From: Rozella allomycis CSF55
Taxonomy: Eukaryota
Length of the DNA stretch: 64,000 nucleotides
Assembly: GCA_000442015.1 (NCBI GenBank)
Contig: KE561068.1
Span: 1 to 64,000, forward strand
Reading direction: 5' to 3'
Shown here: in pieces, positions 11,681 to 12,478 of the stretch
Numbering within the stretch: the first letter of the stretch is position 1
How the letters are laid out: each line of letters opens with the position of its first letter
Program-made: the position numbers and the translations under genes
The notes under the pieces: model-generated
Seen by the model: only the letters and a program-made list of their open reading frames with translations
What the model was told of the DNA's origin: nothing
The model's database searches: none

Positions 11681-12478
11681 ATGTCTGTACGAAAGGCTAT
11701 GCCCCAAACTTATCAATGCAAGTTAGTTATGCTAGGTATAATAATTTATGTTACTTTTTGAAAGGTGAATCAGCTGTAGGTAAAAGCAGCTTAGTGATTC
11801 GTTTTGTTAAAGGGCAATTCCACGAGTATCAGGAGAGTACTATAGGTGGTAAAATATTCTAATATTATTAATTTAGCTGCCTTTCTCACACAAACTGTAG
11901 TAGTAGATGATGAAACAGTAAAATTTGAAGTAAGTAGTTTAATTGGTTGTTGATTGATATGGGATACTGCTGGCCAAGAACGCTTCAGATCATTGGCTCC
12001 AATGTATTACAGAAATGCGCAAGCAGCACTGGTAGTATTTGATATGACTAGCACAGTAATGGATTTAAATTTTCTAAGACAAGGAATCCTTTGAACAAGC
12101 TAAAAGTTGGGTTAAGGAACTTCAGAGGCAGGCTTCTTCAAATATAGTTGTAGCATTAATAGCGAATAAGGTGAAAATATATATTTGTTTCAATTAGGTA
12201 TAATTTTTATTGAACCAATATTTCAGAGTGATCTAAACGGAAAAAGATGTGTCTCAGAAGAAGAAGCGATTCGATACGCCGAGGAGCAATCATTAGTTTA
12301 TATGGAAACATCGGCTAAAACTGGGCAAAATGTAAATGAGGTTTTCACCCAAATAGGTAAATGTAGATGCTAGGCTATATTAGCTAAAAAAATTCCAAAA
12401 GAATCGTCAAAACCAAGGCCGGATGCTGTGGAGTTAAACAGACAGGCTTCTTCGAATGCAGGAAAGGCTTGTTGCTAA
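11681..12478 (+). CDS. RAB5: Rab5-family GTPase (Ypt5/Vps21-like)
   Basis: [66 protein letters not shown]-terminal CC. Confidence 0.96.

Follow-up and report, generated by a model that had tools for sequence, protein, structure and literature searches.

The window analyzed here, a stretch of 64,000 nucleotides from Rozella allomycis CSF55 (contig KE561068.1), contains a gene for a small GTPase whose reading frame is intact across seven exons, and in which a P-loop, the DTAGQE and NK-SD motifs and a C-terminal CC can be read in the sequence. Two of the exons (12084-12170 and 12227-12355) were searched against proteins of solved structure, and their best relatives are Rab5A/B/C and Ypt51, with E values of about 1e-8 to 1e-9 for Rab5A/B/C. 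Judged from its Ras-like motifs and from the best similarity of the two searched exons, the host gene is a member of the Rab5 subfamily of GTPases. Its fifth intron is the subject of this report; it has a counterpart in a gene for an axonemal dynein heavy chain (Table 1).

The genes around Rab5 are tightly packed and comprise those for LSm2, the ribosomal proteins P0 and P2-like, calmodulin and HSP60, together with two tRNAs. When the HSP60 exon was searched against a protein atlas, bacterial GroEL clusters were the only matches. The DNA is compact and eukaryotic, with a GC content of 33-40% per 2-kb window, and its stop codons are the standard ones, as in the ..CC-TAA at the end of the Rab5 frame. 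An Rfam search of the window found four tRNAs only; these include a pair of tRNA-Ile(AAT) genes with identical scores (537-610 and 3457-3530 (-)) that lie about 2.9 kb apart and may represent a local duplication.

Table 1. Positions of the genes and introns discussed in the text, counted from the first nucleotide of the window
Feature	Position	Strand	Length	Remarks
Rab5-type small GTPase gene	11681..12478	+		7 exons; read in the sequence and from a gene model; TAA stop after ..CC
Rab5 intron 1	11736-11764	+	29 nt	
Rab5 intron 2	11849-11876	+	28 nt	
Rab5 intron 3	11930-11956	+	27 nt	GT..TG
Rab5 intron 4	12056-12083	+	28 nt	
Rab5 intron 5 (twin)	12171-12226	+	56 nt	
Rab5 twin, first half	12171..12197	+	27 nt	GT..AG unit; GC 0.19
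Rab5 twin, AG/GT junction	12196..12199	+		internal acceptor abutting internal donor, zero-length exon; read in the sequence
Rab5 twin, second half	12198..12226	+	29 nt	GT..AG unit
Rab5 intron 6	12357-12383	+	27 nt	
Axonemal dynein heavy chain gene	27145-41028			4484 codons, frame intact; hosts the second twin
Dynein twin	35776..35834	+	59 nt	AG/GT at 35804-35807
Dynein twin, first half	35776-35805	+	30 nt	
Dynein twin, second half	35806-35834	+	29 nt	
Calmodulin intron	12632-12702	+	71 nt	one-piece, directly after ATG; without internal AG/GT
Ribosomal protein P0 intron	10363-10501	-	139 nt	before acidic tail; CTAAC-like motif near 3' end; without internal AG/GT
Plausible GT..AG intron	56495-56460	-	36 nt	sole candidate at 32-55 nt

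The intron population of the window

Introns were predicted with our own gene finder, which combines a codon log-odds score, iteratively trained donor and acceptor matrices, and a prior on intron length of which 10% is uniform; the single N at window position 1882 was replaced by A in the scripts. The program reports 27 genes with 109 introns, 98 of which measure 26-31 nt and 100 no more than 31 nt; these counts are the finder's own predictions in 64 kb, obtained with a prior that disfavours lengths of 32-55 nt. Four canonical Rab5 micro-introns (27-29 nt) and one LSm2 intron (28 nt, recognized by eye) were added outside the finder. With a flat length prior, 167 introns are called, an over-prediction in which many introns run through coding or intergenic DNA and which provides no independent test of the gap at 32-55 nt. 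In place of the only candidate within this gap, the final model put an implausible 123-nt intron that runs through coding-looking sequence. No branch-site motif emerged from the introns; TNAY is found in 76 of 104 of them, at no preferred position.

Two longer introns, those of the calmodulin and P0 genes, are real as judged by the homology of their joined exons as read. The original prediction described the spliceosome as tuned to introns of about 27 nt; this description is too strong, given that undivided introns of 71 and 139 nt occur. Predicted 'introns' of 113, 123 and 175-199 nt were not counted, as they merge neighbouring genes or traverse coding-looking sequence. The 113-nt call (6305-6417, + strand) is probably false, since the frame runs on for 15 codons past the donor and then meets a TAA; most likely, the eIF3b gene ends near this position and a second gene starts downstream. 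Among the calls made under the flat prior, one of 52 nt (5422-5473) was checked by homology and is false, since the alignment with eIF3b structures already starts at residue 1 of 5450-6304.

Internal exons provide a further yardstick. Among the 85 that were predicted, the shortest measures 2 nt (in a doubtful merged model), followed by exons of 29 and 60 nt, and none that is credible falls between 1 and 28 nt. A distance of zero between two introns therefore forms a class of its own and is not the tail of a distribution of micro-exons.

Two double-length introns built from abutting units

The fifth Rab5 intron had been predicted to consist of two GT..AG units, of 27 and 29 nt, that are fused at an AG/GT and that each possess the size and the ends typical of an intron of this genome. 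The string positions confirm this division exactly to the base; both halves fall into the 26-31-nt class, and the internal sites score like ordinary ones. The flanking exons end with ..ANK and begin with SDL... When compared with Rab5A (chain 7bl1_DDD), the upstream exon aligns with residues 91-119, ending in ..GNK, and the downstream exon aligns from its second residue onward with residues 121-161, so that its first residue falls on position 120. The two alignments are thus contiguous at 119/120, no residue is lacking where the exons meet, and the 'exon' that separates the two halves has a length of zero. From this comparison it follows that all 56 nt must be removed. The twin splits the guanine-binding NKxD motif of Rab5 within N-K/S-D, and any retained piece would hence break the motif. 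Retention of the first half leads to an in-frame stop after eight codons and retention of the second half to a stop at the second codon; every product of partial retention meets a stop within 2-9 codons.

The interval at 35776-35834 is the only other predicted intron of 52-62 nt in the window, and likewise the only other one of 37-70 nt. It is built in the same way and lies within the frame of the dynein gene at an exon junction (KM/DL) that is free of gaps in all five homologues that were fetched. This second twin surfaced through the gene finder and not through a search for the pattern, and it can therefore serve as an independent replicate. As judged by homology, neither interval leaves any residue in the mature message of its gene, the exons being contiguous at residues 119/120 of Rab5 and at the gap-free KM/DL junction of the dynein.

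A protein search with a dynein exon of 431 residues gave 358 matches among 8000 scored candidates, the best of them with 66% identity over the full length. At partial coverage, identities of 70-73% are reached, the named matches being only Coelomomyces lativittatus and Olpidium bornovanus, and animal dyneins stand at 54-55%. On this similarity, the organism is probably a zoosporic fungus or closely related to one. A metagenome scan for relatives yielded seven loci with 41-71% identity, none of them close; in one of these, 252 residues occupy 1859 nt of DNA, a spread that implies long introns. Over the dynein gene, at 28000-40000, the GC skew is strongly positive (0.15-0.30), and it is near zero or negative elsewhere; presumably, this reflects the composition of the coding strand in a single gene of great length.

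The third Rab5 intron departs from the norm. Situated between ..KFE and IWDTAGQ.., it possesses a good GTAAGT donor and ends in TG instead of AG, which is the reason why the gene finder missed the Rab5 gene; a relaxed gene-finder model mis-called intron 5, and the positions listed in Table 1 were set from the sequence. It is the sole credible non-canonical intron among the 116 predicted by the relaxed model, the other three that were flagged being artefacts. The TG end may be an unusual acceptor that is tolerated, or else stem from an error in the sequence or from a mutation of recent date, and it casts some doubt on the accuracy of the sequence or the integrity of the gene. One might hence suppose that this Rab5 copy is a pseudogene or is marred by sequence errors, and that the 56 nt are not a working intron at all. 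We regard such an explanation as hardly credible. The frame is intact over seven exons, with P-loop, DTAGQ, NKxD, a C-terminal CC and matches to Rab5 structures; the same build recurs in the intact frame of a dynein gene of 4484 codons; and the halves differ in sequence in both twins, so that they do not stem from a duplication made during assembly.

Chance, splice-site quality and the route of removal

We simulated introns of 56 and 59 nt with their real ends and with order-1 Markov or shuffled interiors (100,000 trials each). A central AGGT that leaves two halves of 26-31 nt arises in 0.7-1.8% of these introns, and in 0.4-1.1% when both internal sites must additionally score above the 5th percentile of real sites. 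Both of the introns of 52-62 nt predicted in the window have the central AG/GT build (n = 2, in 64 kb). The original prediction had called for a genome-wide comparison of central AGGT in introns of 52-62 nt with chance; carried out on the window only, it gives two out of two, against a chance expectation of 0.4-1.8% each. The twin architecture is more than chance.

Site scores were ranked against 104 micro-introns, one of which (Rab5 intron 2) had its start placed 3 nt upstream of the correct position. In the Rab5 twin, the internal acceptor stands at the 73rd and the internal donor at the 43rd percentile, the outer acceptor at the 8th and the outer donor at the 36.5th; in the dynein twin, the corresponding values are the 97th percentile for the internal acceptor, the 87.5th for the internal donor and the 40th for the outer acceptor. 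Hence, the internal acceptor scores above the outer one in both twins. Removal of the first half in silico re-creates an exon/GT donor at the 58th (Rab5) or the 79th percentile (dynein), and whichever half is removed first, the remaining site still ranks between the 33rd and the 96th percentile in both twins. No fold that would shorten the 56- or the 59-nt interval differs from shuffled sequences (z = -0.96 for Rab5 and -0.67 for dynein). A lenient zero-gap scan for abutting intron-like units gave eight loci among 451 candidate units, including the two twins; in each of the other six, one 'half' is an exon, as judged by homology or motif at 11736, 12332 and 27900, and by the gene model only at 25384, 26451 and 22145.

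We consider it probable that the Rab5 and dynein twins are removed in two steps, by zero-nucleotide-exon recursive splicing at its smallest scale. Because nearly all introns of the window measure 26-31 nt, the pairing of splice sites presumably operates over a short, fixed span, with the machinery joining each donor to an acceptor about 27-30 nt downstream. Where nearly every donor finds its acceptor at 26-31 nt, the internal sites should be preferred to a pairing over 56 nt, and a machinery that joins a donor to the nearest acceptor should use them, given that the internal acceptor outscores the outer one in both twins. The upstream half, which is transcribed first, would probably be the first to go, and its removal would re-create a donor at the exon/GT boundary; the remaining half would then be removed in a second reaction, and the product would be identical to that of a single 56-nt excision. 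In chemical terms the halves could be removed in either order; splicing that proceeds during transcription would favour the upstream one. Should the internal donor be used at all, the first half can be cleared only via the internal acceptor, so that a working gene implies two reactions.

The two intervals might instead be excised in one step, with the central AG/GT being a relic of a duplication or a chance occurrence that the machinery ignores or uses occasionally. The calmodulin and P0 introns are evidently spliced whole, as otherwise neither the start of calmodulin nor the tail of P0 would be made, and these one-piece introns without an internal AG/GT show that length alone does not force two steps; furthermore, the final mRNA is the same by either route, so that selection on the product cannot separate them. 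Against this stand internal sites that score like working ones, whose spacing of 27-30 nt should out-compete a 56-nt pairing, and an AG/GT that is intact in both double-length introns where chance would provide it in 0.4-1.8% of cases; a double-length intron in which the AG/GT has decayed was not seen, although only two such introns are at hand. On balance, excision in one step appears rather unlikely to us, if a serious contender.

The twin could also act as a checkpoint, at which regulated or leaky splicing produces half-spliced transcripts that carry early stops and are degraded, thereby tuning the output of Rab5. Such a role would fit the stops that all products of partial retention encounter within 2-9 codons and the weak outer acceptor of the Rab5 twin. 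However, early stops upon retention are expected in almost any AT-rich intron, and the same build occurs in the dynein gene with strong sites throughout. We therefore hold a checkpoint to be very unlikely, and favour the two-step removal outlined above.

A sequencing run that bears the same species label was compared with positions 9000-20000 of the window; it contributed 57 contig pieces, of which none reached at least 99% identity, the matches being conserved fragments of other organisms, and a joint in Rab5 was not found among them.

Origin of the twins and their relation to known splicing systems

The two halves of the dynein twin align with a score of 13, a value attained by 0.17% of 5356 pairs of micro-introns, which suggests that this twin arose through the tandem duplication of one micro-intron. 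Unrelated introns match each dynein half equally well (scores of 13 and 14), and a duplication origin is for this reason only suggestive. One of these belongs to a different gene, at 61574 on the minus strand, and its first 15 nt also occur in the second dynein half (score 14); this likeness is possibly a matter of chance in an AT-rich consensus, or the two may be related intron copies. The halves of the Rab5 twin are dissimilar (score 3, equalled by 46% of pairs), so that this twin is either older or of an origin other than duplication. Taking the dynein twin as a model, such structures would probably arise by duplication of a micro-intron in tandem, and they would persist since both copies are spliced.

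Introns can be gained through tandem duplication across an AGGT, whereby a segment of an exon is doubled and the resulting intron stretches across the boundary between the two copies. As in that model, a duplication would here create a new spliceable sequence bounded by GT and AG; unlike in that model, it would be an intron and not an exon segment that is copied, and the outcome would be two introns at one position.

Recursive splicing with a zero-nucleotide exon is known from the ratchet points of Drosophila Ubx, from about 200 other sites in this fly, and from long human introns. The original prediction tied AG/GT ratchet points to very long introns of Drosophila and vertebrates; this is established, but incomplete, as spliceosome profiling has also placed zero-length exons in two fungi, namely in the 375-nt BOT1 intron of C. 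neoformans, which is divided into 210 and 165 nt (10.1101/224170), and in the 336-nt intron of SPNCRNA.445 of S. pombe (10.1101/226894). The twins share with these cases an AG/GT inside what would be annotated as one intron, no exon sequence left behind, and a donor re-created after the first step. Both of them contain the AG/GT within the interval, both intervals are absent from the message by homology, and in both the donor is regenerated in silico. They differ in that the entire interval measures only 56-59 nt, well short of every documented case encountered and about one sixth of the fungal ones, and in that each piece has the modal intron size of the genome and either order of removal would work. 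The known cases, moreover, are based on junction, lariat or spliceosome-profiling data, and the twins on the genomic sequence. If they are removed in two steps, the twins would be a miniature variant of this already documented form of recursive splicing.

Stwintrons of filamentous fungi, such as the [D1,2] type, are intervening sequences in which one intron lies inside another and splits the donor, the branch site or the acceptor of the outer one; as described, they are excised by two consecutive splicing reactions, and some families have spread by duplication (PMC5639578). The two consecutive reactions per intervening sequence are what we propose for the twins as well. In the Rab5 twin, however, no splice element is interrupted and two units with complete ends simply abut; a reading as a stwintron was rejected, as neither a [D1,2] nor a G/GT..AG/T nor any comparable nested arrangement fits the sequence.

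Very short introns have been described from several lineages: about 25 nt in Paramecium and Nyctotherus, about 15 nt in Stentor, and similarly short ones in the dicyemid Dicyema japonicum; among myxozoans, the median lengths are given as 22 nt for Thelohanellus kitauei and Myxobolus rasmusseni and as 27 nt for Henneguya salminicola. The window shares with these genomes a very narrow distribution of intron lengths near the physical minimum. It is set apart by dynein similarity that is nearest to zoosporic fungi and not to ciliates or animals, by standard stop codons, and by the few long introns that are kept. A literature search in which subscription journals and supplements were not covered found no report that links abutting, tandem, twin or recursive introns with ultra-short-intron genomes, and nothing useful on short introns in zoosporic fungi.

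A far-reaching reading of these data would see the spliceosome of this lineage as a molecular ruler: short introns would come in quanta of about 28 nt that multiply in place and in tandem, and the resulting twins would be cleared only by obligate recursive splicing. We put this forward as a speculative and, at present, somewhat doubtful proposal. If it were true, no recursively spliced intron smaller than the twins would be known, and duplication in place would represent a previously undescribed route of intron birth; about two twins per 110 intron positions, as in the window, would then mean hundreds per genome. For genome annotation, gene finders that forbid exons of zero length would report such twins as odd introns of 55-60 nt.

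Should the two-step removal alone prove true, recursive splicing would be more than an aid for the processing of very long introns, and would follow directly from a machinery that joins splice sites across a short, fixed span. A signature that can be checked would be left, namely a further peak in the length distribution, at double the modal intron length and with a central AG/GT, and this signature would bear on the constraint on intron length in ultra-short-intron genomes and on the origin of new introns through the duplication of old ones.
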